A stretch of DNA of 64,000 nt from Stramenopiles sp. TOSAG23-6. Lineage: Eukaryota. A model generated the notes under the pieces. That model searched no databases. It had not been told where the DNA came from and worked only from the letters and a program-made list of their open reading frames with translations. Every line of letters starts with the position of its first letter. The stretch's first letter is position 1. Positions 7,551 to 53,481 of the stretch are shown here, one piece after another. The stretch covers positions 1-64,000 of the forward strand of contig LT635911.1 of the NCBI GenBank assembly GCA_900128565.1, written 5' to 3'. Position numbers and translations under genes: made by a program.

Positions 7551-8105
7551 CTTAATTGGCAACAAATGCAACAACAGGAATTTGTAGAAGAAGTAAATGT
7601 TTCTCTTGTAACTGGAGAATTAGAAAATAATTATAATCATGAAACTTGTACTAACATTAATGATACGCAAGAAATTAATGCATCTACTGGTTGGAATGAC
7701 GTTGTGACATTAGGTGGATGGGATGCTGCTCTACAATCAGAATGTGACGTGAATCAGAATATATCTATTCCACCAAAGCCACATTCTAAAACCAAACTCA
7801 ATGGAAAACAAAATGGAAAACAAAATGGAAAACAAAATTTTAAACAAAATTTTAAACAAAATGGAAAACAAAATGGAAAACAAAAACAAACAGGAAAACA
7901 TTCTGCAAAACAACAGCCGCGGAATGCTTCTCAAAACGTATCCAAACAACGTGGTGCATCTCGACGCGGAAATAGATCTTATGGGCGTGGAAAAGGTAAA
8001 GGTGATAATCGGCAAGGTGGAGAAAATGGTCAGTTGAATCACAAATTTCAAAAGAAAAACACCAATAAGCGAACTTCATCACCTAAGAAGTCAACTAATG
8101 TATAG
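6552..8105 (+). CDS. Caprin-like RNA-granule protein (coiled coil, polyQ, RG-rich tail)
   Basis: KRVRAAKKKLQRIVDLEK...GKELDAAQLQSL resembles the Caprin HR1 N-terminal helix pair; polyQ; NGKQ repeats; RG-rich end. Confidence 0.5.
7506..7550 (+). repeat. (CAA)n microsatellite encoding polyQ
   Basis: Direct inspection; 12-bp AAATGGAAAACA-type repeats also lie at about 7800-7885. Confidence 0.9.
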
Positions 8106-8622
8106 ATTATATGACCTTTACTTCATTGATCGCAGAAACTGATGCTATGCGAGGAAGTGTTAATGAATATGCGTTTATTTGATAAATTAGTACTGCTATT
8201 ATGTTTTACTATCTTGGAATTTATTTATATGTTAAAATTAAAAAATCCCAAATTATTATACTGTATTCATTATGAATGTCTTTTCGATTATACACTTTCA
8301 AAACATATTTTTTAAAATTTATCGGCTCATAAAACCCCGTAGTAGAACATTGTATGTTATTAATGTTAATGCTAAAGAATACAAGAGGAGGAACTGAAAG
8401 TCAGCTACAGTATAGGACTATTGTAGCAAATTCGGAATTTTTTAATAGTAGCAAAATTTGACGTCATCAAATTCAAAATGAGGTTTTCTTTCTGCATTGT
8501 CGTGACTCCAAGACTCATGGTCAGTCACTCACACATAAATTATTATTTTCATTCATCACCATGGGCAAGATTAAGCTTGCAAGTTAGCACACTTAAGCCA
8601 ATTGTATTTTGTTACGAGGAAT

Positions 8623-11600
8623 ATGCCGTGTCAGACTACTTTGAATCATCAAAAAGGTGAAGAAATTATATTCCCGTTTCCTTTCCCACCCTATGATATC
8701 CAGAAATCGCTGATGTCTAGTATATTTAAAAGACTTCAAACCGGTGGTGTTGGTATCTTTGAGAGTCCGACGGGTACAGGGAAGAGTTTAAGTATAATCA
8801 ATAGCGCACTACTTTGGCTTAAATGTTACGCACCTCCAAACTATGACGTTCTTGCGGGAAATAGGAAATTTGAGCAAAATGGAAAAGCTATTGCAAAAGT
8901 TCCAGCTGTAGCTTCGTCTTTCAATTCGTCTGACGATGAAGAACCAGATTGGGCTACTCAATATGAGTCCGCAGCAGTGAGATCTCTGCGAGAGCGTCAT
9001 GAATTTGCAGAAAAACGATGGCAGGCTCGAATCTTGGCACTACTTCAAAATGCAGAAGGCTCCGACAACTTAAACCGTAAACGTGGCCGTTGGTCTAGAG
9101 GCCACCACAAGGGTTCACGAGCAAGCACAAAATCTAAATTATCTAAAAAAGTACTTTCTGACAACAAACAAGAGAATTCAACGATATGCGATGATGAAAA
9201 TGACGATGAATTTCTTGTGGATGCATATGATAGCGATGATGGCGTTAAAGAGGCATGGTGTACCAGCAGTAGTAGTAGTGATGCGGATGGTTTTAATTCT
9301 GATGATGACGACACACCTCTTAGTGTTCGGAAAGTAATTTACTGTACTCGAACACATTCTCAGCTCTCACAGTTCATGAGTGAAGTTAGAGAAACGACAT
9401 TTGGAAATCCCGTTGGTAAATCTCGTACAAAAGAAACATCATCGATGATAGAACATTCCGGTACCAAAAGGAAACTCTCTTCTACTGATAGTTCTATTGA
9501 GCCATTATATGTGAGATGTATGTTTTATTTTTTTTAATTTATATTTGTTTTTCGTACGAAATTTTGTACCTAACGAATTTTATTTGAAATTTTTTTTGAA
9601 ATATTTTTCCAAAATATATGTATTGCATTAGGATCTAGAAAGAATCTTTGTATAAACGAAAGTGTTAAAAAACGGGGAGGGACAAGCATAAACGAATCGT
9701 GTCTCGAAATGCAAAGAAATGCAAAATCCATTAGTAAAACATCTGATAAGAATATAAAGAAGGGAAGTTGTCCTCATTTTGATAAAGGTCCACAAAAATT
9801 GTTTGGAGACCATGCGACTGTCAAAGTTCGTGATATTGAAGATTTAGCAGCACTTGGTAAGAATATGGGATCTTGTCCATATTACGGAGCTCGAAAAGCT
9901 GTACCTTTAGCAGAATTGGTCACAGTTCCTTATAATATGATTCTTCATAGTGGAACACGAAATCGATTACAGTTGCCATTGAAGGGAAATATTGTAATAT
10001 TTGACGAAGCACATAATATTATTGATGCAATTAATAATGCTTACAGTTGTTATGTAACTCATGAAATTCTAATTGCAGCTCATAGAGAACTTTCACAGTA
10101 TCTTCAACGATATAAAAGTCGACTGAAAGGTCGAAATATTATTTTTATCAATCAATTATTATACGTTTTACGGTCCATTGCCAAATTCATTGACAAGTCT
10201 AAAATATCTCCAATTTCAAATGTGAATGGGAAAAGTGTCAATGAAACATCCAATAATAATGTGTTTTCTCTTAGTGAGTTTGTAACAAAAGCTGGTATTG
10301 ATCATATAAATATGTTCAAACTTGATAAATATATTGAACGTAGTAAAATAGGACGTAAAGTTCAAGGTTTTACAGAAAAGTATGTGAAACCTTTTGAAGT
10401 AGAGTCTGATGATAACCATAACCCTAATATCCAAACGCAAAAGAAATCTTCAGGCTCAGCACTAATGCAGGTCAGGGAATTTCTCATGGCACTTACAACA
10501 GCAAATGGTGACGCAAGAGTTCTTATTACAATTGGAAGTGTAAAGATTGTAATGCTCAATGCCTCAGTACATTTCAGAGAAATTGTAAATGAAGCCCATG
10601 TACGTTTTTCAAATTGAATTTTGAGTTTTTTTTTTCATACGAAATTTTGTACCTAACAAGTTTTTGAAAAAAAAAATTGAAATATTTTTATACAATATAT
10701 GCGGTGCTTCTTTTGGGCGGTACCATGCAGCCAATTCAAGATATCGTGAATCAATTATTTTGGCATGTAGAATCTGATAAAATTACTACACTTTCTTGTA
10801 ATCATGTTGTTCCTGATTCAAATATAATAGCTCTAACTGTTGATAAAGGACCTATGGGGAAATCTCTTAAGTTTACTTATAAAATACGAGAGCAAGTAGA
10901 GACACAAATTGAACTTGGCCGTCTGATTGCGAACTTATGTATATGTATGTTTTATTTTTTTTCAAATTCTAAATTTTTTTTCGTACGAAATTTTGTACCT
11001 AACAAATTTTAGGTTTTTTTTTTGAAATATTTTTCCAAAATTCATTAGTTCCTGGTGGAGTTGTCGTATTTTTACCATCTTTTCAATATTCAAAAACACT
11101 TCAAACAACATGGAACAAATCTGGTGGTATATTAAATAGAATTGCAAAAAAAAAGAAAATATTTTGGGAACCACGTAATGCTATTGATGTGGAATCCACA
11201 TTATTGGATTATTCATTCGCTATAAAGAAATATAATATTTCAGAAAAGTGTAATCAAAATATATCGCCCTTGGGCACTCAAAATCAGAATACTCAACAAG
11301 AAAAACAAAATAAAAATCTTACTGGTGCAATATTATTCAGTATTGTTGGTGCTAAAATGTCTGAAGGAATTGATTTTAAGGATGACTTGGCAAGATGTGT
11401 AATTATGGTAGGTTTACCTTTTCCGCCTCCTAATAGTCCTGAACTGAGAGAAAGGATGATCTGGTTAGATGAACAATCTAATAAAAGGACAATGGAGTTA
11501 CAGCCACAAGATTCAAGAATTTGCTCAAAAGATATAAAAAATAANAACAAAAATAGCGCTGGTCAGGATTATTACGAAAATATATGTATGCGGGCAGTGA

Positions 11601-11791
11601 ATCAGTCTATAGGTCGCGCAATTAGACATAAAAATGATTTTGCTTCAATTGTGTTGGTTGATAGTCGATACAAAGAAGAAAGAATAAAACGAAAACTTCC
11701 AGCATGGATACAAAGGCGTACGAAAGTAGCCGATTCATATGGACAAGTAGCAAAATGTTTAGGAAAGTTCTATCGATCACATAAAGTGTGA
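8623..11791 (+). CDS. DDX11: Fe-S DNA helicase DDX11/Chl1; exons 8623-9517, 9620-10599, 10701-10944, 11046-11791
   Basis: [72 protein letters not shown] and [12 protein letters not shown] join in frame using three GT-AT introns. Confidence 0.93.
9518..9619 (+). other. Non-canonical GT-AT intron, 102 nt (DDX11 intron 1)
   Basis: GAGAT|GTATGT...AAAATATAT|GTATTGCA gives [13 protein letters not shown]; the intron has an in-frame stop; the next AG (9630-9631) would create TGA. Confidence 0.85.
10600..10700 (+). other. Non-canonical GT-AT intron, 101 nt (DDX11 intron 2)
   Basis: CAT|GTACGT...CAATATAT|GCG gives [14 protein letters not shown]; the next in-frame AG (10729-10730) would delete helicase motif III. 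Confidence 0.85.
10945..11045 (+). other. Non-canonical GT-AT intron, 101 nt (DDX11 intron 3)
   Basis: ATAT|GTATGT...AAAATTCAT|TAGTT gives NLCI-LVPGG; in-frame AG alternatives exist (ending 11048 or 11012), so the end is assigned by homology to the other family members. Confidence 0.7.
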
Positions 11792-11903
11792 ATGTAAATT
11801 TAATATGAAATAAATATACTGTCGTAATTATTTCGTACCTTTGAAATTATAAAATACTTCCATCATCTATCTTCCACATAAAATGTTCATAGCCATATAA
11901 AAG

Positions 11904-12350
11904 TTAGAATCCTAAATCAGACAACCAGCTCTTCACCCTCTTTGTGTGATTGCCCTTTGCTTCAATTCTACCATTATATATTTTAACTTCACTTTCCAAA
12001 CAAACCTTTTGCATCTCCGTAGCGAGGGCATGGACATCTCCTTCATACTTGCGCAATATTGTTACAGTCTTTGAACGACCATTTTTATAGTCGATATACA
12101 CTGGCAATTGCTTACCAATATCTGAACGGAAAATGTTAAACGGAACATTGCCTGCTTCTTTCATATCACGTGTGTAAACTAAAGGTCTAGGATTTTCTGA
12201 CCACGCCACTTGGTGTTCACGGCGTTGCTTTTTTACCCAGAATGGAATCATACGCTTATTAATAATACGATTTGAATGACTACCACTTCCCCCATGCTTG
12301 GTTGCGATTGAGCGGGTGAACATGACTATGGTGTGCTTTGTAGCGCTCAT
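11904..12350 (-). CDS. MRPL49: Mitochondrial ribosomal protein mL49 (Img2)
   Basis: FNIFRS...QLPVYIDYKNG...TILRKYEGD...IEAKGNH...VKSWLSDLGF; alternative ATG at 12362. Confidence 0.88.
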   Translation of the reverse strand: MSATKHTIVMFTRSIATKHGGSGSHSNRIINKRMIPFWVKKQRREHQVAWSENPRPLVYTRDMKEAGNVPFNIFRSDIGKQLPVYIDYKNGRSKTVTILRKYEGDVHALATEMQKVCLESEVKIYNGRIEAKGNHTKRVKSWLSDLGF

Positions 12351-12452
12351 GTTGAAGTACATCTTGTAGAAAAACTAATAATATTTCTACAGTAGTGTTT
12401 TAGTATAGGTTGGTACTGGTAAGTTCAGTAGACTTTGGCACGTGTTGCGTTG

Positions 12453-12466
12453 CTTTTTGACACGTG
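12453..12466. promoter_or_regulatory. CTTTTTGACACGTG motif (contains G/E-box CACGTG) in the divergent mL49/CDT2 promoter
   Basis: Exact 14-bp copy at 46693-46706; a second CACGTG lies at 12439-12444. Confidence 0.45.
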
Positions 12467-12655
12467 GCATCGGCATGCATGATTTTTTTGATTTTTTTGA
12501 ATGACATCAGCAAATAACTCACGACGGACTCACGACCAAAAAAACTGAAAGAATTAATAATATTTTTAGAGTTTACTAAACTTGTTTCAACAAGAAGATT
12601 CTGGAAAAAGACTACAATCCCTATAATCACTACAGTGTAATATCAGACGCGGAAG

Positions 12656-15034
12656 ATGTCGAGCGATCCATGTTCTAGTACTGTATCAAATCTAGTCTGG
12701 CGTGAAAAAAAAAATTCAGTGAACATTGTGCCAATGGTCAAAACTTGGAATGCTAGAGCTACTAACAGACGTTTACGCCCAAGCTTGTCACGCTATGTGA
12801 TGAATCGTCAAATGGGTTGTGGCGGAGGACAACAATACTCACAGTCTACAACTGTACAGTGGATGAAACGTCGGCTTATCGTTGGATGTAAAGCTTCATC
12901 CCTTGCAAATTCACGAATAAACGTTCTCATGTGTCGAAATGAGTTGGAGGAAGATGTACCACCGTTTTGTTCCTTTTTCTCCAGATATGCGCTTGGTGGA
13001 CATGCACTATGTATATCAGACGAAGATGGATGGGTAGAAATCTTAGACTCGCGATTGCCATTGGACATCATTGAAAATGCTGAAAGAAAACGTCACCGTT
13101 GGCTTGCTCACGCTAACGCAGTATTCGATTTAAAGTGGACGGACTACGACACCAAAATTATTACAGCTTCAGGTGATCAAACGGCACGTTTATTTGATAT
13201 AGAAACACGGAAATTATTGTTAACATTTGAATCTCATAATGGAAGTGTTAAATCTATTTCAACGCATCCATTAAACCCTCATGTGTACGCTACTGGTGCA
13301 CGTGATGGCCATTTGATGCTTTGGGATTCTCGTATATCAATGAAAATAGCTGGTTCAAACAAGAGAAGAGATCGTGGTCGTAGTATTGGCGATACGACGG
13401 CAAATACAAATGACTGGATTGTCAATCCTTTCATAAAAGAATACAATGCACATACTCTTCAAATGTTCAAACGAAAAAGAAGTCAAGGTTCTATTCCTGT
13501 CGACTCTTGTGCTGCTGTTACAACTGTTAACCTCATGAAGGATGGATTTTCATTAATAACTGGTGGTGCTGCATCAGGTTGTATGAAAGCATGGGATTTG
13601 CGACGTTTAAAAGGTAGAAAGAATAAACAAATTCAACATGTCGATGAATTTTGTCCTAGGCGAAGTCCGGGTAGACCATATGGAATTAGCTCAATTGATG
13701 TAGATGAAAGTGGAACAACACTCTTGGTAAACTTTACTAATAATATTATCAATCTCTTTCATTTTGGTATGTCTAATCCATGCTTCAAGAGTTATAGTGA
13801 TATAACTGGTAAAGGCAAAGGAAAATGTTGTGATGGGAGGTCAGGTGGGTGTCTTAATCACACTTCTGGTTTCGTAAAACATCCGTATAATTATGTATCA
13901 GACACAAGAATGAGTGACTCTTTCTACGTAAAGGCATGTTTTTCTCCAGATGGTAGACACATACTAGCAGGTTCTTGTGACAGTAAAGCATATATTTGGC
14001 CAGTACTATCATGTGGTAGTTCTTATGACTTTGATGGAATTTCTTCTTTTGCACCTGATGAAGTATCTATACCAAAGGATGTAATATTAGAACGTCGTAG
14101 GCAACAAAAATATTCTTCCGAAGAAATTCATAATGTGAAACCTATACGAATTCTTTCTGATGCTCTTTCAGAAGTAACCTGTGTAGATTGGTGTAAAATT
14201 GACCCTCAAAGAATTGTTACTTGTTCAGATGATTCTATTGTTAGATGTTATCAATTGCCCAATGCATGTGACGAAGAAAAAACATATTTCAGTAATCCCT
14301 ACCTAGTATATAAGACAATATTACCTGAATCTCAAAAAAATATACAAAATAATAACAATTCACAGACAAACACTCAAAATAAACCGAAAAAAATCCAATA
14401 CACTCTTGCGAATAAAAGTATCAGATATTCTACTATAAAAAATAATATGATATCAGAGTCTATGGAAACCTCAGCTGGTAGATCTGTCAAAGATAAAATA
14501 AAATATAGTGAAAATATTGAAAAAAATAAATCATTTTTATGGCCAAATAAAGAAGTAAATTTAAAACAAAAAAAAGAAGCTCGTTTAATAGCAATAATGA
14601 GAGCAAAAATAAAAGCTGAAAAAATAAAAGAAAACAAAAGAATTAAAGACGAGGAAAATAAATTACATAATGGGAATGGAGAAACTGATAAAACGGATAT
14701 TCTATCCAAGATTTCACCTCTTAGTCGATATTTTCGAATCAAACCAAGAACAATTAGCAAATTAACAGATACAGATGTTGTATCTGACAATAAAGAAAAT
14801 GTATCACAGCATGATGATTCTTGCACAAAAAAGCAAAGTAAGACAAGTTTTAATAATTCTGATAGTAATTACCAAGCATGTATTATAAAGAAGGTATTAG
14901 ATGACTCTAGAGAGAAAAACCAAATAAATACAAAAGAATCTGAAAAAGATCTATCGTGTAGTAGTAGTCCAGAGAAAAAACGACAGCGAACTATTTTAGA
15001 CTTATGGGGGCTTAATAATATACTTAACTTATAA
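12656..15034 (+). CDS. DTL: Denticleless/CDT2 WD40 substrate receptor of CRL4
   Basis: WLAHANAVFDLKW, TASGDQTARL, HNGSVKS, TGARDG, SFYVKACFSPDG, EVTCVDW, TCSDD; C-terminal QRTILDLW is PIP-box-like. Confidence 0.88.
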   Translation: MSSDPCSSTVSNLVWREKKNSVNIVPMVKTWNARATNRRLRPSLSRYVMNRQMGCGGGQQYSQSTTVQWMKRRLIVGCKASSLANSRINVLMCRNELEEDVPPFCSFFSRYALGGHALCISDEDGWVEILDSRLPLDIIENAERKRHRWLAHANAVFDLKWTDYDTKIITASGDQTARLFDIETRKLLLTFESHNGSVKSISTHPLNPHVYATGARDGHLMLWDSRISMKIAGSNKRRDRGRSIGDTTANTNDWIVNPFIKEYNAHTLQMFKRKRSQGSIPVDSCAAVTTVNLMKDGFSLITGGAASGCMKAWDLRRLKGRKNKQIQHVDEFCPRRSPGRPYGISSIDVDESGTTLLVNFTNNIINLFHFGMSNPCFKSYSDITGKGKGKCCDGRSGGCLNHTSGFVKHPYNYVSDTRMSDSFYVKACFSPDGRHILAGSCDSKAYIWPVLSCGSSYDFDGISSFAPDEVSIPKDVILERRRQQKYSSEEIHNVKPIRILSDALSEVTCVDWCKIDPQRIVTCSDDSIVRCYQLPNACDEEKTYFSNPYLVYKTILPESQKNIQNNNNSQTNTQNKPKKIQYTLANKSIRYSTIKNNMISESMETSAGRSVKDKIKYSENIEKNKSFLWPNKEVNLKQKKEARLIAIMRAKIKAEKIKENKRIKDEENKLHNGNGETDKTDILSKISPLSRYFRIKPRTISKLTDTDVVSDNKENVSQHDDSCTKKQSKTSFNNSDSNYQACIIKKVLDDSREKNQINTKESEKDLSCSSSPEKKRQRTILDLWGLNNILNL

Positions 15035-15076
15035 TTTATTATTAAAGAATGTTTTTATCATCACATTAAATGTCTT

Positions 15077-18000
15077 CTATGTTTCCCAAATTTTAGCGTT
15101 GTTCCATTCTGCGGAGTTTTCTCCGTAAACGCTTCGGAATTCCTCTTCGGTGTATGCGGTGCCATCACTAGGATCAATCCGCTTTTCAACATAGTATAAT
15201 GGCTGATTATCATCTGATTGGTATGCGTCATTATCAAAGTGATCTCCATCGGTATTATAACCACCTTCATCAGTTTCGTATCCAAATTCGTCATTAAGAG
15301 CCTCCAACGAAGTCATATCATCAAGTATGCTATTTTGTGGATAATCTTGGTCTTGCTCTGCGTAGTTGATTTGATTAATTCCTGTGTCATCTTTCTTCTC
15401 GTCCGCATCCACCCCGGCTTCGTTGATGTTTTCGTCATCGTCACTATTATCACTATCACTTTCTTTGTTTTTGTCACTATCGTCAAAACCTCCTTCCGGT
15501 ATCGGCGGTGGTGGGGGTCTTTCCTTTACTTTTTTCTTGAGAATATTCTTGAAACTAGAAACCTTTTTCTTTTCAATAACTTTTACGACGCCACCTTCGT
15601 CGTTTTTCTCGTTATCATCATCGCTATCATCATCGCTATCTTCATCGTCGCTACTACTACTTTTGCTGATTTGCTTGGTGTCCTTTACCTTTCTTTTTTT
15701 TCTACGTAAAAGACGTTTAAACTTCTTTGCCAAAGGAACGTCCGAATCTGAATCAGTGTCAGAAGAAAGTACAGCTGCCCGTTTCTTCTTAGGCTTTTCA
15801 AAAGGAACAATTCGAATATCGCCTTCTGGCATTTTCCAGCTAGTCTCACCAGATGCTCCGCAGAAATAGTATGTTCTTCCAGTTTTTTTGTCGTGCAACG
15901 AATTCCAAAGCATAATACTGTTGGTGTCCTTAATTTTCTTGACAAAGCCTCCCACAGTAGCGCGGACGTCTTCCTTTCCACGAATTGCTCTTCCTAAAAA
16001 TGAAACTGCGTTTGCTAGGTCTTGTGCTTGCAATGATGTTGCTGCACTGACAAGGTTCGAAGAAATCCTTGCGGCTTTTGTATCCATTGCGTTTTTATAT
16101 GCATCTGTATCCTTTGCGACACCCCACAATTTTGAAAGAGCTTCCGCTGTTTCACTTTCACGAATTTTCGTCATTGTACTTTCAGAACCAGGTGGGCCCT
16201 TCAACACCCCACCAATATCGATCCCTTTCTCTCTTACACCATCCGCGAGTCTTGCCGCGAACAATGCTACTTTCGAATGTTTTGGCAACTTATAGCATTT
16301 GACTCCTTTTACTCTAGTGCAATTTCCCTGACTATCTAACTTCACATTCTTCGAAGGAACAGTTGCAAAATTTCCGAATCCGTCCCATTTTTCTACCAGC
16401 ATTATTTGTAATACGGTCTCTATGCTCTCCTTCTGTTGTTGCTCTAAACGAATTTTATCAATTAGCCTTTGTGCTGGCGATTTCAATGAATCCATTAAAA
16501 TTGCTGCGTCAGTTTTTTTATTGACAATCGCGTTACGTCTCTTCTTCTTCTTCGATTTTCTCCTCGCACGTTTAACTGTGAACTTGCGCCCAACAATGAG
16601 TATACGGTCGTTTTCTTTCAAAAGATCAGTGATATCAACTGTCGTGTGAAGCGTTCTCTTATCTCTTACCAAAGTAACGGTTCCCGGCAGTTCCTCACTG
16701 AATTTATCTTCCATTATAATAGAAGCAGCTGATCGACCAATATTTTTGAAACGAGTTGACGTCAACTTTTGCCGATCTTGTTCTTGTCTAACCTTAATAC
16801 TTTCAGCTCGCTCCCAAAGTCGCTGCTGTCTCATACGCTCACGCCCTGCGCGACGGATCATCTTTCCACGATACAATGCTTGAAATTTTGTAGCGGACTG
16901 ATGCATCGCCATTAATTGGAACTGAGCTCGCAGTGCATCTCGTTCTGCTAGCTGTTCTGCTTCTATACGAGCTCTTTCTTCTTGAATTTTCTTATTCCAA
17001 ATATCAACTAGAAGCAAAGGTTCAGGTTTCGCATTGTGAAGCATCCTTTGGCCATGAGAGTGAACTTTTTCAAAGCAAATTGTGCAATATGGTTCATCGC
17101 ACTCAATACACCACCACTTAACTGCGTAGTCCTCACACTCTACACATGTTGCAACAATTGGTGTCCATGAGTGAGACTTTTTCATGTGTATATTTTCAAA
17201 GCAATTGTCACAAAGTTTAGCTTTCTTTGGAGTTTTCCTATGAGCAAGCTTACACGCTAAACAGTGGCGAGTTGCCACTTGATAACCACATTCCCCACAG
17301 ATGTCAACAGGGAGTTTTGTGTGCTTCTTCCGTTTACCTGAACAGTGTGTGTCGTCATAACATGCACTACAAAATTGTGTCTCACATTCCCGACAGACAA
17401 CTTCAACACGTTCTTCTTCACATTGCGAACATAGAACAACAAATTCACGCTCAGGAGTCGGAAGTGTAAAAATATTGTCAAGATCTTCCGCTTCAACCCA
17501 ATAAGCTTGATCATTCGCATCATAATCCCAATAACCATCTCGTAGGCAAGCAGGTCGATGCCAAGACTTTTCATTTGTTCTTTTGTTGAAATAATACGGT
17601 TCTTTAGTTTCAGGGTCCATAAATTTTACAAATATATCATTGATAACAGCCCATCTACGAGCTTTAGCCTGGTATCTCCTGACCATTAATTGAATACGAA
17701 TAACCCAACCACCCTTTCGCTTTGCTTCCAACCATGCTTCCTTTGCTATTCTAGAAAGTGCCATGAGCTCCTTTCCCTTATACCTTCGCCAGGATGCAGC
17801 GCACACCCTTTGAGCCCATGTTAAATCATCTGTTACTTTCGACTCAAGTTTCTTTCTTGCGCTCTTGTTAAAAACTACCCCGTTGGAATATAATAAATGA
17901 TTATGGATAACTAGTATTAATCTAATTTCACCTGGTGTCAATGGATTGAAAATTCCTCCCAAGCGACCAGGTGTTCTCGTGTTCGGAATCAATTTTCCAA

Positions 18001-21000
18001 TTCTATGTTGTGCTCTTAGTTCGTTAAAATTTGTCGCTGCTGGATACTTAAGATTTGCTATATCTAAGAGAGCGTCGAGAAACTGTGAAAAGTTTAGGAC
18101 ACGCTCGTTCTTTTTTTTGTATTTAGCAAAGATAATATCGCACTTAGTAGCAGTTATTTTTGATTTATCCAAAAGATTATGTGCTTGTGATATCATCTTT
18201 TTAAAAGAAGAATTGTCTATGGTTAATTGCTTTGAGGCTCCCTGCTCCTTTGCGAAGTTACAAAATATACCGCCAAAGCCCCACACACCCAAAACTTCAG
18301 GGCNTATCCCCTTTTTCTTTTTTATACGTATAGTTCGTAGAGTAAGAACGTATTTCCAGTACTTTCTCGTATGAGCATATTCGGCACGCCCACACCACCC
18401 GACATCCTCAAGCCGACGCATTGAATCTCTCAAGTTTGAAGCCAATATACGTCCGTGATATCCACGGACCATCGATTGAATTTTTGCCACAACACCCTGG
18501 TATCTTCTCATCCTATCTAATAGTGCTCGAAATTTTTTACGTTGCATTGATCCTTTCAAATATCTTTGAAGAACTATCGCCATTTTCTTCTTTCTTGCAG
18601 AGTTCCACTTGAGAAAGCGCCGCTGTATTTTCGAAGCAGCCGGTCCATATCTTTTCATCAGAACTCTCTTTTTCATTAGATGTCCACGTATCCTACTCTG
18701 TACGAGAATGACAGCATTCATTCTTTTCTCTATTTTTGACTTAATTCTTGCTTTTTGCATTAGATGGATTTTACACTTTACTTTTTTTCGACCAAGCTTC
18801 CCACGATAGCATTTTTGAACTAAAATTGCTGCTTTCTCAAGCTTTCGAGCTTTGTTAAATATACCTAGTTTTACTGCCCGTCTTAGCTTGTGCTTGTTTT
18901 TCTTCAGAGCTTGCATATCAACGACAGTTTTAAACCTACCTCCAAAATACGATAGCTCTTGTAAGTCAGCCTCTCCTGCTTGTTTTTTTTTCTGTCTTCG
19001 TTGAGCGGTAATACGAATCTTTGACCAATATAAATCTTCCCGAATTTTTTTGCAAGCCTGCACCTGTAGAATCCGCCGCAAGTGATACTGAACTTTTTTC
19101 TTTGCAAGGAAACGTCTTCTTTCTTTGAATGTTCCAGTGATGTATCGCTGTACTCTCAGCGCCATCTTGAATTTTCTAGCTTTTATTAAATTTCGAAGCT
19201 GCTTATATCGTTCTATACCACGCCACCATTCTTTAATATAATTAGCTGCCCCGTGTTTTCGAAATAAAAGAAGACGTTCTGCCCGTTCCCTCTCACGTTG
19301 AACCTTGGCTCGTCGCATACGCCGCAAAGTCAAAAGAAGCTTAACATGCTTCCTATCTCTAAAAGCTCGAAAAATTCGCTGTGCATGAACTGCAAGACGT
19401 ATTTTTGCTTCCTTCAGTATTTTTAGGAAAAACATCAATGCTTTTGAGTGGTGTATCCGGTAGTGCTGCTGCACTTTCTTACAGCTTTCTACCAACAGTT
19501 TGAATTTTTTTGTACTCTTTCTTGATTCGTAACCACGATAGAGTCTTTGTAAGTGAATCGTTCCTTGAATACGACGGAGAACTCTTTCACGAGAATCTTT
19601 CTGTGCTTCCCGTTCCTGATTCCGAATTCTACCCAACTTGTCCTGGATATCCTTCCAACCCCAATATATCCTATAACGCCTTTGAATAATTGTTGCGTAT
19701 TTTATTCGACTTGCTAAAATTTGTCGCTGTATTTCTTCTCTCCACCTATGCAAACCGAGCTCAAGGTATTTTATGATCATGTTGTTTAAAGATTTCTTAA
19801 TCATGTTAACGAAACGTTTCATTCGGAACCCATAGACTTCATCGTTCATTGCTTTTGCGACTAAATTCCGTGGTAACCTTTGCAACATCGCAGACATCAT
19901 TCTCGTGCTTTGATATTTCATTTCATTTACTTGCAACCGTGATTCTTCGGCACTATGCTTCAAAATATTGTGTCTTTGTTTTGTTGGAGGATCAATTGCC
20001 TGAGGAGTTTGTATTAAATTTGTACTTGTTAAACCAGTAGCTGATTTCAGGCAATGTGCTGACAGACCATGTAACACAAAACCTGGTTTTTTGACAGAGG
20101 TTGAATGCAGAGCTATTGGAGTCTTTTCTATATTTATAACTTTCGGATCTGTTTCTTGTTCTACATTTTCTGTTTCAGAAAACCCCTCATTATTTTCTGA
20201 ATGTAAACAAATGTCTTTATTATTTTCTCTATCAAGTATGTTGTTCTCATGAATTTGTATATCTTTGCTTTTTGAANTTGAAGTCCTCACAACATCTTGA
20301 TGTCTTGATATTTTCGTTTTTGTAGAATCTTTTTGTGAAACTTGTGGTTTTGTAAAATCTTTTTGTGAAACTTGTGGCAATGGTGTTGTTCCAATATAAG
20401 ACGTTGGAAATTTATGTTTCCTAGCGAGTGTTTCATGTTGTTTCTTTCGAAGTTCATGAAATGGATCCAAATGATCACTTTTCGTAAATTGTTTTTCAAT
20501 CTGTTTAATTGCTTGCCTTACGGCAAAGTTGGGCGCAGGAATTTTATCTAGTTCTTTTGCCATATGAGGTGAAATTGCACTGAGTATTGGTAATTTCGGT
20601 GGTGGTGTATATTCTATTGGTTTTTCATCTTTATTTAGGGATGATTTATATCCAGGTATAATACCTCGTTTCTGTAAAATGTATTTTCTGTGTTGCTGTG
20701 CTGTTCTTTGTAAATGATATAATTTAACCTGAAAGTTTGTATCATTTTGCATTCGTTTGTATCGTATATTTTGCTCTAACGCCTTCGCTTCATCCTCAAG
20801 TTCTTTCGGTCGAGATAAAAACTCTTCAATTGTTAGTTGTGATTTCCTATCAGATAAATGCATCGGTTGTAGTGAATATTCCTCACGTCTATCTAATAAC
20901 CCTAATCCTACAGTTGGATTACTTGTGACAGATTTTGATATTTTACGTCTAATTGTACTACTTCGTGGCTTATTTGCCACTGAGCGAACTGAAGATAAGG

Positions 21001-21406
21001 GGGGGACTACAAAGCTCCCACCTGGTCCAAATGAACCGTCTTCGGCATATCCCGATCCAATTATATCACCTATATTGTACGAACCAATACTTACTAAACT
21101 ATTCATAGGACCAAGTTGGTCCTTTTTTTGATTCTCAGTCAGTCTCTCTTGACGATAACGCTTTCGACGGCGTCTTTTGATTTTAGATTCAGATATTTGG
21201 TTCTTTTTTGTGTAAGGAGATATACCAAACTGACTAGATATAATGTTACGTGAAACCTTTAGGGAGGAAGCGTTACCAGTTTCAATTTGCGATAGTAAGT
21301 CTTGAATGTCAGTCATATCCTGACCAACTGGCTCGTCATTGAAGTGATCTATAGGAGTAGAACTTTTCCGACGAGCACCTACTCTAAAGAATTTTTTGTC
21401 AGACAT
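15077..21406 (-). CDS. 2109-aa multidomain protein: IQ repeats, p25-alpha/TPPP domain, WW domains, B-box zinc fingers
   Basis: Several IQxxxRG motifs; IDNSSFKKM...DIIFAKYK...LNFSQFLDAL (p25-alpha); YYFNKRTNEKSWHRP and YYFCGASGETSWKMP (WW); CSQC..C..C..FC..C...H....H (B-box, three or more). Confidence 0.78.
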   Translation of the reverse strand: MSDKKFFRVGARRKSSTPIDHFNDEPVGQDMTDIQDLLSQIETGNASSLKVSRNIISSQFGISPYTKKNQISESKIKRRRRKRYRQERLTENQKKDQLGPMNSLVSIGSYNIGDIIGSGYAEDGSFGPGGSFVVPPLSSVRSVANKPRSSTIRRKISKSVTSNPTVGLGLLDRREEYSLQPMHLSDRKSQLTIEEFLSRPKELEDEAKALEQNIRYKRMQNDTNFQVKLYHLQRTAQQHRKYILQKRGIIPGYKSSLNKDEKPIEYTPPPKLPILSAISPHMAKELDKIPAPNFAVRQAIKQIEKQFTKSDHLDPFHELRKKQHETLARKHKFPTSYIGTTPLPQVSQKDFTKPQVSQKDSTKTKISRHQDVVRTSXSKSKDIQIHENNILDRENNKDICLHSENNEGFSETENVEQETDPKVINIEKTPIALHSTSVKKPGFVLHGLSAHCLKSATGLTSTNLIQTPQAIDPPTKQRHNILKHSAEESRLQVNEMKYQSTRMMSAMLQRLPRNLVAKAMNDEVYGFRMKRFVNMIKKSLNNMIIKYLELGLHRWREEIQRQILASRIKYATIIQRRYRIYWGWKDIQDKLGRIRNQEREAQKDSRERVLRRIQGTIHLQRLYRGYESRKSTKKFKLLVESCKKVQQHYRIHHSKALMFFLKILKEAKIRLAVHAQRIFRAFRDRKHVKLLLTLRRMRRAKVQRERERAERLLLFRKHGAANYIKEWWRGIERYKQLRNLIKARKFKMALRVQRYITGTFKERRRFLAKKKVQYHLRRILQVQACKKIREDLYWSKIRITAQRRQKKKQAGEADLQELSYFGGRFKTVVDMQALKKNKHKLRRAVKLGIFNKARKLEKAAILVQKCYRGKLGRKKVKCKIHLMQKARIKSKIEKRMNAVILVQSRIRGHLMKKRVLMKRYGPAASKIQRRFLKWNSARKKKMAIVLQRYLKGSMQRKKFRALLDRMRRYQGVVAKIQSMVRGYHGRILASNLRDSMRRLEDVGWCGRAEYAHTRKYWKYVLTLRTIRIKKKKGIXPEVLGVWGFGGIFCNFAKEQGASKQLTIDNSSFKKMISQAHNLLDKSKITATKCDIIFAKYKKKNERVLNFSQFLDALLDIANLKYPAATNFNELRAQHRIGKLIPNTRTPGRLGGIFNPLTPGEIRLILVIHNHLLYSNGVVFNKSARKKLESKVTDDLTWAQRVCAASWRRYKGKELMALSRIAKEAWLEAKRKGGWVIRIQLMVRRYQAKARRWAVINDIFVKFMDPETKEPYYFNKRTNEKSWHRPACLRDGYWDYDANDQAYWVEAEDLDNIFTLPTPEREFVVLCSQCEEERVEVVCRECETQFCSACYDDTHCSGKRKKHTKLPVDICGECGYQVATRHCLACKLAHRKTPKKAKLCDNCFENIHMKKSHSWTPIVATCVECEDYAVKWWCIECDEPYCTICFEKVHSHGQRMLHNAKPEPLLLVDIWNKKIQEERARIEAEQLAERDALRAQFQLMAMHQSATKFQALYRGKMIRRAGRERMRQQRLWERAESIKVRQEQDRQKLTSTRFKNIGRSAASIIMEDKFSEELPGTVTLVRDKRTLHTTVDITDLLKENDRILIVGRKFTVKRARRKSKKKKRRNAIVNKKTDAAILMDSLKSPAQRLIDKIRLEQQQKESIETVLQIMLVEKWDGFGNFATVPSKNVKLDSQGNCTRVKGVKCYKLPKHSKVALFAARLADGVREKGIDIGGVLKGPPGSESTMTKIRESETAEALSKLWGVAKDTDAYKNAMDTKAARISSNLVSAATSLQAQDLANAVSFLGRAIRGKEDVRATVGGFVKKIKDTNSIMLWNSLHDKKTGRTYYFCGASGETSWKMPEGDIRIVPFEKPKKKRAAVLSSDTDSDSDVPLAKKFKRLLRRKKRKVKDTKQISKSSSSDDEDSDDDSDDDNEKNDEGGVVKVIEKKKVSSFKNILKKKVKERPPPPPIPEGGFDDSDKNKESDSDNSDDDENINEAGVDADEKKDDTGINQINYAEQDQDYPQNSILDDMTSLEALNDEFGYETDEGGYNTDGDHFDNDAYQSDDNQPLYYVEKRIDPSDGTAYTEEEFRSVYGENSAEWNNAKIWET

Positions 21407-21717
21407 ATCTAAATCTTTATTCTGGCATTTTCAGTGATTCCTTGGCCATGTGGCCGAAAACATGGCGTGGTGCTGATCAATCTTTCAATTTGTTTGTATG
21501 GGGGGGTACCAAGCATATTAGTAGTAGTGTCTCTCTCATGTCAGTTACATACAATTGTTGACTACTAGTAGCAGCTGAATTTTAAAGATTTCGTGTAATC
21601 GCGCTGAGAGTCAGTTTAATTTTCACTCGAGGTTGAAGGAAGGAGTGCTACAAAGTACTTAGTTGTATATATCAGAGGCGCCCTCACATATAATATCGAG
21701 GTGCTCTTCCAGGGGCC

Positions 21718-24700
21718 ATGGCTACCGTTGGCTCTTTACAGAAGAGTACACCCAGTTCTATACCTGGTGCATATCCTCTAAATGCTTCTGAACATTTGAA
21801 GGAGCTAGTATCCCCTCATATAGAATCGTTCAACTATGTGATTCATGATGGTCTTGAAGCAGCTATTAATAGCCTTGCAACTTATCCAACTGTTATTACA
21901 ATGGATAATGCAAAGCAAAAGAAGAAGAAATCAAACATAAATACAAAGAAACACAATACCCGAGCAGATTCGTCTAGCTCTTCAGGATCATCTAGTTCTG
22001 ATGATAGTGATTCGGAGTCTTCAGAGGAAGAACGTGACGGAGATGTTCTCCAGTTGTGGATTGAAGACGCTGAGATTGGCTACCCCACTAGGTCAGATGA
22101 TTCCCTTGACTCTCGATGTTTTCCAGCAGAATGTAGACAACTTGGTACAACGTATGATGCGCCACTTTGGTTGACTATTTGTCGACGTGTTAATAATGGT
22201 ACAGTTATTCGTATGCAACAAAAAGTTGGAGATATTCCAATCATGGTTCGTTCTGACCGTTGTCACCTGAATGGTTTGTCTCCAAAAGAACTTGTACGTC
22301 GTCATGAGGATGCGGATGAATTTGGTGGATATTTTGTATGTAATGGTATCGAACGTTGTATCCGTATGTTACAAATCCCACGGAGAAATATGGTACAATC
22401 TCTTGATCGTCCGTCTTTTGCAAATCGTGGTCCGAAGTATTCCTCTAAAGCAACTTCAATTCGATCTGTGACTGCAGATCAATCTGGTACTACTGTAACT
22501 TGTCACTACCAAACTGATGGTAATGTTATGGTTAGATTTCTTGTGCGTAAACAAGAGTTTTTTGTTCCAGTAATTCTTTTAATGCGAGCACTAAAAGAAG
22601 TAACTGATCGTGAGATTTACGATCGTCTCGTTGGTACGGGGAATAATTCATCAACTGATAAGGTAAATAAGAGTTCTTCATTTGTTGCTGATCATGTAGA
22701 AGTTATTCTTAGAGATGGGCGTACATATGGTGATATGTATTCTCGTACACAGTGTTTAGCTTACCTTGGTGCTCGATTCCGTGTTTTGTTGCAACAAGGA
22801 CTATCGTGTGAATTAATGTCTGATGCACAGGTTGGCCGTGCTTTGTTGCATCGTCATATTTTTGTGCATCTTAGTCAGTCATCTAAGATTGTGAACGATA
22901 ATGCGGATAGTGCAAAGTTTAGTCTTTTGTTATTTATGCTTCGCAAACTTTTCTCTTTTGTTGAAGGTACGAGTGTCGCTGATAATTCTGATGCTCTTTC
23001 ATCACACGAAATCCTCACTTCTGGTCATTTGTACATTAAAATTCTTAAAGAAAAAATCGAAGACTTCATGCTTAATGTAAAACAATTTATTCTTGCTGAT
23101 CTACGCCGTGATAGCTCTCGTGTGTCATTCAACAGTGAAACATACATTAAACGATCGTTAGACCGCCAAAAAGATTTAGGTAAAGAATTATACTATTTTC
23201 TTGCTACTGGTAATTTGAGATCTACGTCAGGTCTTGATCTGATGCAGAATTCCGGATTTACTATTATAGCAGAGAAATTGAATTGGTTGCGGTATATTGC
23301 TCATTTTCGATCAGTACGTTTTATTTTTTTTCAATTTTTTTATCTAATTTTTTTTCGTACGACATTTCGTACCTAACAAATTTTAGTTTTTTTTTTGAAA
23401 TATTTTTCCAAAATACATGTACATCGAGGTAGATTTTTTGCGGAAATGAAAACAACAACGGTACGTAAACTGTTGCCGGAATCGTGGGGATTTTTATGCT
23501 GTGTTCATACTCCTGATGGTTCCCCATGTGGACTTCTTAGTCATTTATGTGCCGCTGCAAGGTAAGTTTTTTTGAACGAAACAAATTCTTTCTTTTTTGT
23601 TTTTCTTTCTTTGTTTTCTGTAACATTCTATTGTTTTTTGTATAACTAGTGAAATGATTACAAATTATTGACATTTTTGTCAATGTGCCGCTCCAGACTT
23701 AAAGAAGCTTCAACGGGCGTCTTGTAGACAGCAGGCAAGCACCCCACCATTTTCTTGCCGGATGATCACTATAATACAATCAATCAATTAGAATTTTCAA
23801 TCAATATATTTTAATTATCAATGTCACAATCAATATCACAACCAACTCATTGTATACATTTTGTTTTATTAATTATACACAATAGAATTGTTCCACAAGC
23901 TCAGGATACTTCCAGACTTCCAAGTGTATTGGTTGCATTAGGAATGATTCCAGATGTTGAAGATACGAGATTGCTTCTACCTCGTTCTCAATCTGTTGAT
24001 GGTGAAGGCAAGGGATATCTTCCAGTATTGCTTGATGGGCGCGTCATTGGTGCTGTTGCCGTTGGACGTGCAACTAAAATGGTGTCTGAATTACGTAGAA
24101 TTAAAGTAACAGAGTTAGCATCTCGTGTAGCTGCTGGCAAGTGTAACAGTAGTTACCTTACACCAGTTTCAGAATGCTCAGATGTGAAATTAATCGGTAA
24201 AAATCGAGGCGTTCCTGTGGATCTAGAATGTGCATTAGTACTACCAATGTCTGCTGAAGGAGGTGGACCATTTCCTGGACTATATCTTGCAGCTGAAGCT
24301 GCCCGATTGGTTCGTCCAGTTCACCATCTTGGTGCAAATGCTCCCGAGTGGATAGGTACATTTGAGCAGATGTTTATGTCAATTGGTTGTCAGGATGCAG
24401 AAGCTGAAGACGCTACTCATCGTGAAATCGATCCTATGAATATTCTCTCTGTAGTTGCTAGTCTAACACCTTTTTCGGATATGAACCAAAGTCCGCGTAA
24501 TATGTACCAGTGTCAGATGGGTAAACAAACAATGGGGACACCATGTCACAATTGGATTAATCGTCGTGATAATAAAATGTATCGCATTCAACATGCACAA
24601 GCGCCTATTGTTCAAAATAAAGCACAGGTTCACTATCGTATTGATGACCACAGTAATGGATGTAATGCTGTTGTTGCTGTATTGAGTTATACTGGTTATG

Positions 24701-25917
24701 ATATGGAAGATGCAATGATTATTGGTAAAGGGTCGTATGATCGTGGCTTTGGACATGCATCTGTGTACAAAGTGAAAACTGTTGACTTGTGCGAACGCGA
24801 AGCCAATCCAAAAGAACGTTTTGGAGTTGAAGTTCCGGTTGAAGGAAATGTAAGTGAATGTAATGGAAATACCACACATGGCAAAGGACAACAACAAGGC
24901 GCAGAGAATATCGATTCGGATGGTCTTCCACGTGTCGGAACAAGACTTGTCAAAGGTGATGCTATGTATTGTACTGTAGATAAGACTACGGGTATAGGTC
25001 ACTACGGAGTATATAAAGATAATGAACCATGTGTTGTGGAAGATGTACAACTTCTTGGTCCTGGTATGGGCAAATCTGAATTTACCAAAATTAGTATGAA
25101 GCTACGATACAATCGTAATCCAGTAGTAGGAGATAAATTTTCAAGTCGTCATGGACAAAAAGGTGTATTATCCTTTCTATATCCGCAACAAGATATGCCA
25201 TTTACTGAAAGTGGAATGTCGCCTGATATTATTATCAATCCACATGCTTTCCCTTCTCGTATGACAATTGGTATGCTTGTTGAAAGCATGGCTGGTAAAG
25301 CTGGAGCTCTTCATGGTCATTTTCAAGATTCAACTCCTTTTCGCTTTGATGAAAATCACCGTGCTGTAGATTACATGGGTGAACAACTAAAAGCTGCAGG
25401 TTACAATTACTATGGTAGTGAACCTATGTACTCTGGAATTACAGGTGAAGAAATGCAAGCAGATATTTTCATTGGTTGTGTTTATTATCAAAGACTTCGA
25501 CATATGGTCAGCGATAAATCTCAGGTAAGATCAACTGGACCAATGAATTCACTCACAATGCAACCTGTAAAAGGCCGTAAACGAGGTGGTGGAATCCGTT
25601 TTGGTGAAATGGAACGCGATTCTCTCATTGCTCATGGAACATCTTTCCTCTTGCAAGATCGTCTTTGCAATAGTTCAGATAGACATAATGCATGGGTATG
25701 TTCTAGTTGTGGGTCAATGCTCGGATTCCAATATCACAGAAAAGGCGGCGCAGCAATTCCTGGAGGTAAAATCATGCACGAAACTGCCCAAAATGCTTTA
25801 CAATGCCGCTCTTGTAATAGTAAAAACATAAAGCAAACATCGATGCCTTATGTTGTACGTTATTTAGCTAATGAACTTGCAGCTATGAATATCAGAATGG
25901 GTGTGGAAGTATCATAA
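21718..25917 (+). CDS. POLR1B: RNA polymerase I second-largest subunit; exons 21718-23313, 23419-23561, 23886-25917
   Basis: [88 protein letters not shown]. Confidence 0.96.
23314..23418 (+). other. Non-canonical GT-AT intron, 105 nt (RPA2 intron 1)
   Basis: TCA|GTACGT...AAAATACAT|GTACAT restores HFRS-VHRG; in-frame TAA inside; nearby AGs (ending 23386, 23428, 23432) are all out of frame. Confidence 0.88.
23562..23885 (+). other. Canonical GT-AG intron, 324 nt, hosting a structured RNA candidate
   Basis: AAG|GTAAGT...AATAG|A keeps the RPA2 frame. Confidence 0.85.
23647..23771 (+). ncRNA. Candidate intronic box C/D snoRNA
   Basis: Terminal stem TAGTGA/TCACTA, box C variant ATGATTA (23654-23660), box D variant ATGA (23762-23765), internal hairpins; GC-richer than the flanking intron. 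Confidence 0.6.
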
Positions 25918-26282
25918 ATTAAATGAGTCAAAGACAAGCTTAATAAGTTGGAAAAATAATGAAAATAATCTATTCGAAAAAGAAAATAATGAATGGGTGT
26001 GGATATTCTTTACTAACTCCGATTTTTTTTACTATATTATGTCTATTTGTCGCGTGTGATGTGCACTATGAATTTGATCACTATAAAAAACTTTAAAAAA
26101 GCGACTTTTAAAATATTTTGTTTTTTATATTTTGTTTTTTATTTTGTTTAAGCGCACGAAATCAAATATCACAAAAAATCAAATAATAAAATTTTTTGGA
26201 ACAGGAGCGCGAAAGTTCAAAAAGTCACAAAACACAACAACTTGAAAATAACAACAACTTCTTCTTCTTTCTTCTAAACAAT

Positions 26283-38578: not shown

Positions 38579-39005
38579 AAAATAATTTGTTATTTTACTC
38601 GTACTTCATGATAATACGAAATCCAATTATAATAGTATAATATATATATATATATATCAAGTAATAAAAACTTTAAAATGATNACATTTTATAATTCTTC
38701 TTCAAAAACTCCAATATTTTCATTATTTACTACAAATAATTCATACATAATGCTGTTTTTTAGAACCGACTCAAATCGAATCTGAAATCTCAATCGACCG
38801 GTAAAATCTCCACTGACTAGACGAGAGAAATAAATCGATTATCGAGGGGAGGCTGTTTCGTCTTACTGTGACCTTGATAATCCTTTTGAGGGCAATTGCT
38901 TTGTACGCCCAGCACATCGATAAAGCACGTACTATATATAATAGTGTATAATATATATTCAAGTGGTTCATCATCTCATTCGCTGGACATATTGTGAATC
39001 CGAAC

Positions 39006-53300: not shown

Positions 53301-53481
53301 TGCCGCTATTTTACGAAAGAAAAGACTGAGAGAAGAAAATGCAGATGGGGATTCTTCTGCTGATGCTCAAAGAAGAAAAAAAGTTATTTTACTTCTTGGA
53401 CAAGCACGATCGGTACTAGCCCAAAGTAAACATGCAAAGAAGAAGAAGTTGTTGTTATTTTCAAGTTGTTGTGTTTTGTGA
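50329..53481 (+). CDS. Large helical protein of unknown function, truncated at the duplication junction (53436)
   Basis: 1050-aa ORF; the last ~14 codons come from the duplicated sequence. Confidence 0.65.
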   Translation: MFSNKPESDDDLISNGDAWLKSPNLLNSQLNGVKKALVKLTQNENSTESSSTVTSNVSDITVMDYLLESMVRHLRIRPGQAFALLTMNRDALRSFFRHGISPANEKKTNKSLNFDVLINWMNGIYDTAISKTSCFRLFTDVSHVLFLLSILRSGILSTSEDLSAASCRALAATITTIKISYSNTTKNRFIQTTNDTTNNIGDQSGNYDKNSNDSKMSKILNGFPLWFWSWFLLPDQKVIKNMYNLNVSNKNFSNGDQISVFGVNDDSKNKSGDIQMSNIGTSGGLSALIWVCQFSPNSVSSIVGCIAEIVQYSDSNNSEKNLAQLSLSSILGQHLQTNISVNRAVMLQCEDSLQEKRQKSLKLRNLKGNTTNSKAVTSEVLEVARVHLEVLHLMMKPLAQFKKTRDIMATSEIISDLASKAFELINECSKQQGAINTYFGFEGETKILATLESQMNECHSEAVIFLCELWKCYPDCVDRCNLSITPTTTKPGNNQNENGENFVRPLPLLIVNVLKSGARDTKLATALTSIACLFNLLDIFSPNKLQKKNNKMKTAMFETVQEKQNLNNNAGASSSLIQQANQESEGTAGPHIFKTLIFLLVESFSDDMTNHFLASNFVNVLRRNPGLPVNLVADPFTKQISLTGYKNNQLDMVVEIARHPKLGIKHAIQLLDFLIATGIHDHPFSHFVYVPIGMLLKRFGRTESVSVHIARCCSTSLGIVVQEELSNVSSDSCREMYVPPTIIHQRAILELLLFIINLHITPINEKMRQVICDKHRRYINTHCGAMHAGIASLLRYWGXNEEIKSVNAKEVLMAVDHSKKSKRRSLAGKRNKVDPPQTNQMQYLLQGIILDANGIPISTNIRQLSSSGSVQRIQKNQLVKDRENVLQSSPKTKESKGGKGSTQSSRKNIPKNIPPTTSTAGNVMKLTDAKLNEEREKRKALFSNPENVDERKTGIKVAQARHRSKVEESENVQMREKLLREKTSIMRKLKNAAILRKKRLREENADGDSSADAQRRKKVILLLGQARSVLAQSKHAKKKKLLLFSSCCVL

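Follow-up and report, generated by a model that had tools for sequence, protein, structure and literature searches.

A family of introner-like inserts with apparent GT–AT boundaries in two genes of a marine stramenopile

How is a gene expressed when it is interrupted by inserts that start like introns but appear to end in AT instead of AG? The question is raised by a 64,000-nt stretch of DNA from Stramenopiles sp. TOSAG23-6 (contig LT635911.1 of assembly GCA_900128565.1, positions 1 to 64,000; hereafter the window). In this stretch a gene for a DDX11/CHL1-like helicase carries three such inserts (I1, I2 and I3) and the gene for the second-largest subunit of RNA polymerase I (RPA2) carries a fourth (I4). 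The original prediction, made from the sequence alone, held that the four inserts form a distinct class of introns excised with an AU 3' end alongside normal GT-AG introns. The host is taken as an uncultured marine heterotrophic stramenopile, whose DNA recurs in seawater metagenomes of several years.

A repeat family of intron-sized inserts

The predicted coordinates of the four inserts, their GTAYGTTTT starts and their AT ends were all confirmed from the sequence (Table 1). I1–I4 align with one another over their whole length, with pairwise identities of 68–93% across ungapped columns, I3 and I4 being the closest pair, and with a mean column identity of 75% with flanks. The inserts are 81–84% A+T. 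Similarity among the copies starts at the G of GTAYGT and ends at the final T, and the flanks are unrelated save for short microhomologies. All four independent copies lie in the sense orientation of their host genes. A 20-mer from the 3' part of the element occurs five times in the window, against 0.05 occurrences expected by chance; the fifth is in the duplicate of I4 (56288–56392) and does not count as independent. In a seawater DNA metagenome (run X3; 7,096 contigs), the summed contig depth over the element is ~36,000 compared with ~6–10 for flanking single-copy sequence, a figure of depth that does not equal copy number. The element is very highly repeated in the sampled community, most simply in the source organism.

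Because the copies are alike, intron-sized and high in copy number, they are read as mobile and introner-like, and it is near certain that the inserts constitute such a mobile-intron family. Similar intron-sized sequences at unrelated sites, the feature by which introners are recognized, are present as four independent copies in two genes. This repeat or mobile-element origin is an addition to the original prediction, which named none. The other long open reading frames (ORFs) of the window have no Pfam match to a transposase or other mobile-element gene, and the ORFs with matches are ordinary eukaryotic genes. Rfam returned no match at the gathering score anywhere in the window. A group II or group III intron or a known ribozyme was rejected on this result and on the size of the element, only ~100 nt. 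Group II introns have the ends GUGYG...AY, which the ends of the element, GUAYG...AU, merely resemble.

The sequence at 15706–26270 recurs in inverted orientation at 53436–64000, up to the end of the window, as a duplication that is 100% identical over its 10,565 bp. It covers RPA2 with its copy of the element and most of a neighbouring 2109-codon gene. The duplication suggests a chimera of assembly or amplification more than a biological event, the alternative being a real recent inverted duplication.

Table 1. Positions of the inserts, their host genes and the ordinary introns in the window.
Feature	Positions	Strand	Length	Context	Sequence features
I1	9518–9619	+	102 nt	DDX11-like gene, phase 1	GTATGTTTT...GTACCTAAC (9566–9574)...TATAT
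I2	10600–10700	+	101 nt	DDX11-like gene, phase 0	GTACGTTTT...GTACCTAAC (10649–10657)...TATAT; most diverged copy
I3	10945–11045	+	101 nt	DDX11-like gene, phase 1	GTATGTTTT...GTACCTAAC (10995–11003)...TTCAT; TAG 3 nt downstream
I4	23314–23418	+	105 nt	RPA2, phase 0	GTACGTTTT...GTACCTAAC (23369–23377)...TACAT
I4 duplicate	56288–56392	-		Inside the perfect inverted duplication; no independent copy	
DDX11/CHL1-like helicase gene	8623–11791	+		Exons 8623–9517, 9620–10599, 10701–10944, 11046–11791	Pfam DEAD_2 and Helicase_C_2
RNA polymerase I second-largest subunit (RPA2) gene	21718–25917	+		Exons 21718–23313, 23419–23561, 23886–25917	Pfam RNA_pol_Rpb2_1/2/6/7 and RNA_pol_Rpa2_4
Ordinary GT-AG intron	23562–23885	+	324 nt	RPA2, 143 nt downstream of I4	GTAAGT...ATAG
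Ordinary GT-AG intron	26404–26503	+	100 nt	Sulfate-permease gene; identified by eye, frame checked by hand	GTATTT...TTTTAG; Pfam Sulfate_transp on the downstream ORF

The register of removal

Removal of the three helicase inserts from GT to AT leaves a coding sequence of 2865 nt (954 codons) without an internal stop, and removal of the introns from RPA2 leaves 3771 nt (1256 codons), likewise without an internal stop. The homology references were proteins of a related marine stramenopile, P0001 for DDX11 and P0125 for RPA2. Aligned over the full length, the helicase product is 55% identical to its reference (961 columns) and the RPA2 product 76% (1265 columns). In the protein database search, the nearest proteins were EukProt entries (61% identity for DDX11 exon 2 and 74% for RPA2 exon 1), and oomycete proteins ranked next at ~38–42% identity. 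An N at position 11545 in DDX11 exon 4 produces one X in the translation.

The exact cut can slide within a narrow allowed range at each insert, from −2 to +4 nt in I1, −2 to +1 in I2, −2 to 0 in I3 and 0 to +4 in I4. GT...AT is the sole register common to all four, as predicted, and no allowed register ends in AG. The resulting junctions restore the conserved motifs of the reference proteins. At I1 a cysteine codon split as t|gt is rejoined and matches P0001, which the I2 junction also matches. At I3 the junction reads NLCI|L|VPGG, where P0001 has NICSQAPGGVV, and only the AT end preserves the length of the motif C-x-x-[VA]-P-G-G, for which three homologues have CSQAPGG, CTIVPGG and SRIVPGG. 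The I4 junction HFRS|VHRG is identical to P0125 (HFRSVHRGRFF). The 12 columns to either side of each junction are free of gaps, and the local identities are 16/25, 20/25, 18/25 and 25/25 for I1 to I4. The codons just after the AT encode the residues of the relatives, such as VHRG for I4, indicating that they are coding sequence and not part of an intron.

Ordinary GT-AG splicing at cryptic nearby sites would be a competing explanation, under which the proteins would carry small indels at these points and the apparent AT end would stem from holding to the ancestral protein sequence. To enumerate the alternatives, frame-keeping GT/GC...AG pairs were listed with donors from 45 nt before to 30 nt after the 5' boundary and acceptors within 45 nt of the 3' boundary. 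In-frame, stop-free pairs of this kind exist at all four sites, and a survey (PMC9860276) records introners that insert or delete codons. At I3 the acceptor TAG 3 nt downstream takes away a single residue (IFPGG); the other option at this site is an 11-residue insertion. At I1 the strong donor leads to a stop, and the remaining pairs delete ALGSR or a 10-residue stretch; at I2 a 10-residue stretch is lost, and at I4 either VHRG becomes VR or 12 residues are inserted. The ALGSR and VR outcomes arise from a donor 4 nt further in (GTTTTATT), which gives in-frame GT-AG pairs at I1 and I4.

Such splicing would need different donors and acceptors at each site. With the exception of the pairs that leave insertions (10945–11012 in I3 and 23318–23386 in I4), it would also remove residues that are encoded in frame and match the relatives, for example the H and G of VHRG. 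Since the lost residues are still encoded and agree with relatives that are only 55–76% identical overall, they are best understood as coding sequence. Joining the strong GTAYGT donor to the next AG gives a TGA in I1, the loss of a conserved stretch in I2 and a frameshift in I4, and costs one residue in I3. The claim of the original prediction that AG acceptors are harmful at three of the four sites stands for this donor, with the qualification that in-frame GT-AG pairs do exist for the donor 4 nt further in, at the price of conserved residues.

A public gene model of the same RPA2, P0126, does adopt a cryptic pair. It places the I4 donor at 23318 and the acceptor at 23428 and reads HFRSVRRFF, so that the forced GT-AG junction deletes two residues of a universal motif. 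P0126 contains 988 residues, compared with 1256 in the uninterrupted reading, and drops many other internal stretches of the ORF. It is a weak model that reflects forced canonical sites and carries no RNA evidence. Altogether, cryptic GT-AG splicing is an unlikely account of the four inserts. The public gene models of the source genome seem unreliable around and beyond the element.

Other ways of resolving the boundary were tried and rejected. AT-AT, GT-AC and TA-bounded registers are not common to all four copies; a ciliate-type internal eliminated sequence, with TA at both boundaries, is possible for I1 and I4 and impossible for I2 and I3 in the allowed registers. If the internal UUUUAG served as acceptor, the proteins would gain 11 residues at I3 and 12 at I4; this site is missing from I1 and I2. 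Recursive or nested splicing cannot create a terminal AG. Editing of the acceptor, which had been offered as one way out, finds nothing in its support, and A-to-I conversion fails in that no allowed register ends in AA. Ribosomal bypassing has matching take-off and landing codons only for I1 and I4. The inserts very probably must be removed exactly at GT...AT, a judgement that draws on protein homology, reading frame, conservation and selection.

Splicing signals, candidate machinery and transcripts

Measured against the consensus of U2-type introns, a GTRNGT donor, a branch site of the CTRAY/TACTAAC kind and a pyrimidine tract are present in all four copies; a 3' YAG is present in none of them, and YAT is found instead in all four. 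The strings GTAYGTTTT and GTACCTAAC and the T-runs each occur in 4/4 copies. GTACCTAAC corresponds to the yeast-type UACUAAC plus one extra C. The distance from its branch A to the 3' end is 46 nt in I1, 44 in I2, 43 in I3 and 42 in I4, and the motif is followed by T-runs and then by a small hairpin (GAAAUAUUUUUC). Every copy closes with AT preceded by a pyrimidine at position −3, whereas position −4 is A in I1, I2 and I4 and T in I3. A YAG acceptor is conserved in the same manner, except that here T stands in place of its G. AGs between the branch and the end are located only 4 nt (I2) or 10 nt (I3 and I4) past the branch A, and splicing at the AT would need to pass over them.

The ordinary intron of the sulfate-permease gene ends in TTGTACAAATTTTAG, and the element-internal TTGTACCTAACAAATTTTAG of I3 and I4 is nearly the same string plus the branch motif. 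Possibly the element arose from an ordinary intron, the AG 10 nt past the branch A being what is left of the earlier acceptor.

The explanation that we favour, although we regard its chances as evenly poised, is that the four inserts belong to an introner-like family spliced with a YAU 3' end, most likely by the major spliceosome. The genome of this marine stramenopile would harbour a high-copy family of AT-rich mobile introns of ~100 nt. Each copy brings along a donor of the yeast type (GTAYGT) and a motif resembling a branch site (UACCUAAC), and its excision from the pre-mRNA would start at G1 and stop exactly after the T of the terminal pyrimidine-A-T. The likeliest machine would be the major spliceosome, with YAU taking the place of YAG as the 3' splice site. 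The unit of mobility would be the intron itself, which might spread by reverse splicing or through a circular intermediate into sites resembling AT|GTAY. The ordinary GT-AG introns of RPA2 and the sulfate-permease gene bear out the original prediction that normal introns coexist with the inserts, and an AT-ended class beside them is the best reading of the sequence.

A more far-reaching version of this proposal is put forward tentatively. An abundant marine heterotrophic stramenopile may carry roughly a thousand or more copies of a self-propagating, YAU-ended intron, on which the major spliceosome would routinely complete the second step at a non-G nucleotide, perhaps docked by G1-U(-1) and U2-A(-2) pairing. 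Such introns would have spread as exact intron units, would outnumber GT-AG introns (4 versus 2 in the unique part of the window) and would be invisible to standard gene finders.

The insertion sites bear on the mode of spread. Short repeats overlap the boundaries, with 6, 3, 2 and 4 nt of microhomology in I1 to I4 against a background mean of 0.7 (combined p 3e-4). They divide unevenly between the left and right sides of the cut (2+4, 2+1, 2+0 and 0+4), and no target-site duplication of fixed length or position is seen in the four copies. These boundary repeats describe a preferred site resembling AT|GTAY. As the conserved unit ends exactly at the inferred splice sites and lacks a fixed duplication, the mobile unit looks like the intron itself. 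By the features of introners that move as DNA transposons, the 9-nt termini are imperfectly inverted (GTAYGTTTT versus AAAATAYAT) and the boundary repeats vary in length as given above, from four copies only. Spread as an intron unit fits better than a cut-and-paste transposon with a fixed duplication, a choice that four copies cannot settle.

Excision could instead be guided by RNA structure and not by a dinucleotide at the 3' splice site, as proposed for the introners of Amoebophrya and the nonconventional introns of euglenids. Terminal inverted repeats and complementary flanks would draw the cut sites together, and the agent would be unknown machinery or a modified spliceosome. Consistent with this, the first 9 nt of the element (GUAYGUUUU) can pair with the last 9 (AAAAUAYAU), and I1 and I2 each fold with their cut sites face to face in a single helix (G1 against U(-1), U2 against A(-2)). 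Folds that include 10 nt of exon on each side give z scores of −2.7, −2.6, −0.03 and −4.75 for I1 to I4, three of the four being better than shuffled sequences. The exon flanks are more complementary to each other than the coding background (combined p 0.006, driven mainly by I2), and the 2–6 nt direct repeats over the boundaries recall those of Amoebophrya. Against this, the geometry is not shared by I3 and I4, and no compensatory change occurs in the terminal pairing. A hairpin in the centre of the element (GUACGA/UUGUAC) is conserved apart from a single change on one side. The element also keeps strong classical 5' splice-site and branch signals, which such a mechanism would not need, and its borders are constant rather than variable.

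The Amoebophrya introners, as described in PMC7789003, have highly variable borders without consensus, inverted repeats of 8–20 nt and direct repeats of 3–5 nt at the boundaries, in an organism in which U1 was not detected. They resemble the present family in being repeated introns of a marine protist with non-GT-AG borders, terminal inverted repeats and direct repeats over the boundaries. They differ from it in that the boundary here is uniformly GT...AT, the 5' splice-site and branch signals are strong, and the terminal pairing is short and lacks a conserved geometry. Structure-guided excision is an improbable explanation for the family.

The individual flanks were compared with the coding background. 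Those of I2 (10590–10599 and 10701–10710) contain GAAGC and GCTTC and form a duplex of −10.2 kcal/mol (empirical p 0.0017), and those of I4 pair as well (TCGAT and ATCGA; p 0.056). This pairing may reflect a palindromic target preference or chance, and a palindromic site is suggestive for I2 only.

It is highly unlikely that a derived minor (U12-like) spliceosome removes the inserts, even though introns of the U12 type tolerate non-AG ends, GT-AT among them. U12-type introns have the donor RTATCCTT and a branch site, TCCTTAAC, that lies ~10–26 nt from the 3' end. As predicted, the element matches neither; its donor carries GT and not CC at +5/+6, its branch motif is 42–46 nt from the end, and T-rich tracts are present. 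The resemblances that remain are that GTATGTTTT agrees with 7 of 9 positions of the U12 donor consensus, that CCTAAC resembles CCTTAAC, and that GT-AT is a documented U12-type terminal pair (PMC1557818). Among the GT-AT introns that this source records, seven are of the U12 type (human plus mouse) and one, in DGCR2, is a conserved intron of the U2 type, so that the premise of the original prediction that U2 introns end in AG was too absolute. The animal introns share the terminal dinucleotides of the element and show that spliceosomes can ligate after AU. They are isolated single introns, neither repeated nor mobile, and the U12-type cases possess a U12 donor and a branch site near the 3' end, both of which the element lacks.

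Finally, the inserts might never be removed, being a disabling small transposon or an amplification or assembly artefact, their host genes either dead or backed up by functional copies in other places. The sequence of an environmental strain, represented in run X3 and sampled in another year, bears directly on this. Its contigs continue past the exon border into the insert, by 20 nt at I1 and by 28 nt at I4, showing that the strain carries both inserts at the same places. Eight of the nine RPA2 differences listed between the window and the strain, which fall on both sides of I4, are synonymous, as are 21 of the 28 listed for the neighbouring 2109-codon gene; 63 further differences exist beyond those listed. 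The RPA2 result indicates that the gene is alive and under purifying selection, and a dead-gene or artefact reading is unlikely. Retention, originally predicted to give stops or frameshifts, could not be tolerated, since I1 when read through gives ...CMFYFF followed by a stop. Permanent retention would agree with the lack of a spliced transcript among the joints listed, with the chimera-like inverted duplication and with an element as abundant in RNA libraries as in DNA, but it is very improbable given two otherwise intact genes of 954 and 1256 codons, the sense orientation of every independent copy, the synonymous differences and the shared inserts of the strain.

Reads were examined over positions 8000–26000 of the window in three RNA runs, two non-poly(A) (X6 and X9) and one poly(A) (X10), and in the DNA run X3. 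Exon cover by RNA contigs is thin (0–4), and X10 aligns mostly as short conserved pieces from other organisms. The RNA runs consequently neither support nor refute splicing. In the protein database, no candidate was found for a transcript-derived protein fragment across DDX11 exon 3, and the relatives and the one public model found there include no transcript-based protein of the source organism.

Several observations weigh against splicing of the family with a YAU end by the major spliceosome. To our knowledge, a 3' AU is no known substrate of this machine on such a scale. No join of ~101–105 nt is present among the 15 of 146 joints listed, and none of the RNA contigs listed on exons (177–383 nt) crosses a junction. 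The element is about as over-represented relative to exons in X6 and X9 as in the DNA run X3, the depths not being rankable; this excess fits DNA carry-over or retention as well as it fits splicing. The UUUUAG located 10 nt past the branch A in I3 and I4 would have to be skipped, and the end-to-end pairing geometry that might dock the AU end is common to only two of the four copies. Scans of public metagenome and viral contigs yielded no further copies, so that only four independent copies can be read. A pattern scan had no matches in viral contigs and nine loci in metagenome contigs, none of them a family member by profile search or by eye, and a 20-mer scan of viral contigs gave six loci, again none a family member.

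Relation to known introns and significance

Introners are high-copy mobile introns found notably in marine protists such as Micromonas and Aureococcus, and also in fungi, dinoflagellates and others, according to two surveys (PMC9860276, PMC12130899). The present family agrees with them in its many near-identical intron-sized copies in unrelated genes, its sense orientation, its splicing signals, a GC content below that of exons and its occurrence in a marine protist. It also appears to be lineage-specific, as the gene models P0001 and P0125 are contiguous at the insert sites. It departs from the described families, which have GT/GC/GA...AG boundaries, in that the 3' end required by homology is AT in 4/4 copies, and also in having no fixed target-site duplication and a conserved unit that coincides exactly with the inferred intron. 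The same surveys start from annotated introns and discard unfamiliar splice sites unless these have RNA support, so a GT-AT family would be missed.

The element can also be compared with the introns of a tunicate. The major-type spliceosome of Fritillaria reportedly handles many non-GT/AG introns, some of which are said to come from transposon insertions, and most introns of that lineage are non-canonical at both ends. In the present family the donor is canonical, only the last base differs, and an ordinary GT-AG intron occupies the same gene. Non-canonical introns of Fritillaria and its relatives are treated in PMC13326754.

In the literature outside supplements, no prior description of GT-AT introners or of this family was found. 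Term searches of main texts on single-cell genomes of marine protists, including uncultured marine stramenopiles, turned up nothing on splice sites or on introns that are repeated. Isolated GT-AT introns and introners with non-canonical borders have precedents; for a mobile family that is uniformly GT-AT we could find no description.

Elsewhere in the window, a minus-strand ORF (43304–44623) without a Pfam match contains imperfect tandem repeats at 43802–44032 (84–89% identical, offset by ~60–105 nt). A kinesin motor and a protein-kinase domain (46977–48158 and 38994–40208, respectively) begin inside their Pfam profiles, at positions 38/327 and 23/263, and the two ORFs may have upstream exons, hence further introns.

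If transcripts confirm the joins, a mobile intron family bounded uniformly by GT and AT would be on record for the first time, and with it a natural, genome-scale case of a spliceosome with classical 5' and branch signals accepting an AU 3' splice site. Recognition of the last nucleotide in the second step would then become testable, together with the factors that may relax this check (U2AF35, Prp8, Prp18, Slu7 and Prp22). Reverse splicing predicts just such a unit, coincident with the intron and free of a fixed target duplication, which makes the family relevant to the spread of introns. The gene models of this group of uncultured marine grazers would be systematically wrong at sites of the element, of which the RPA2 model P0126 is already an example.

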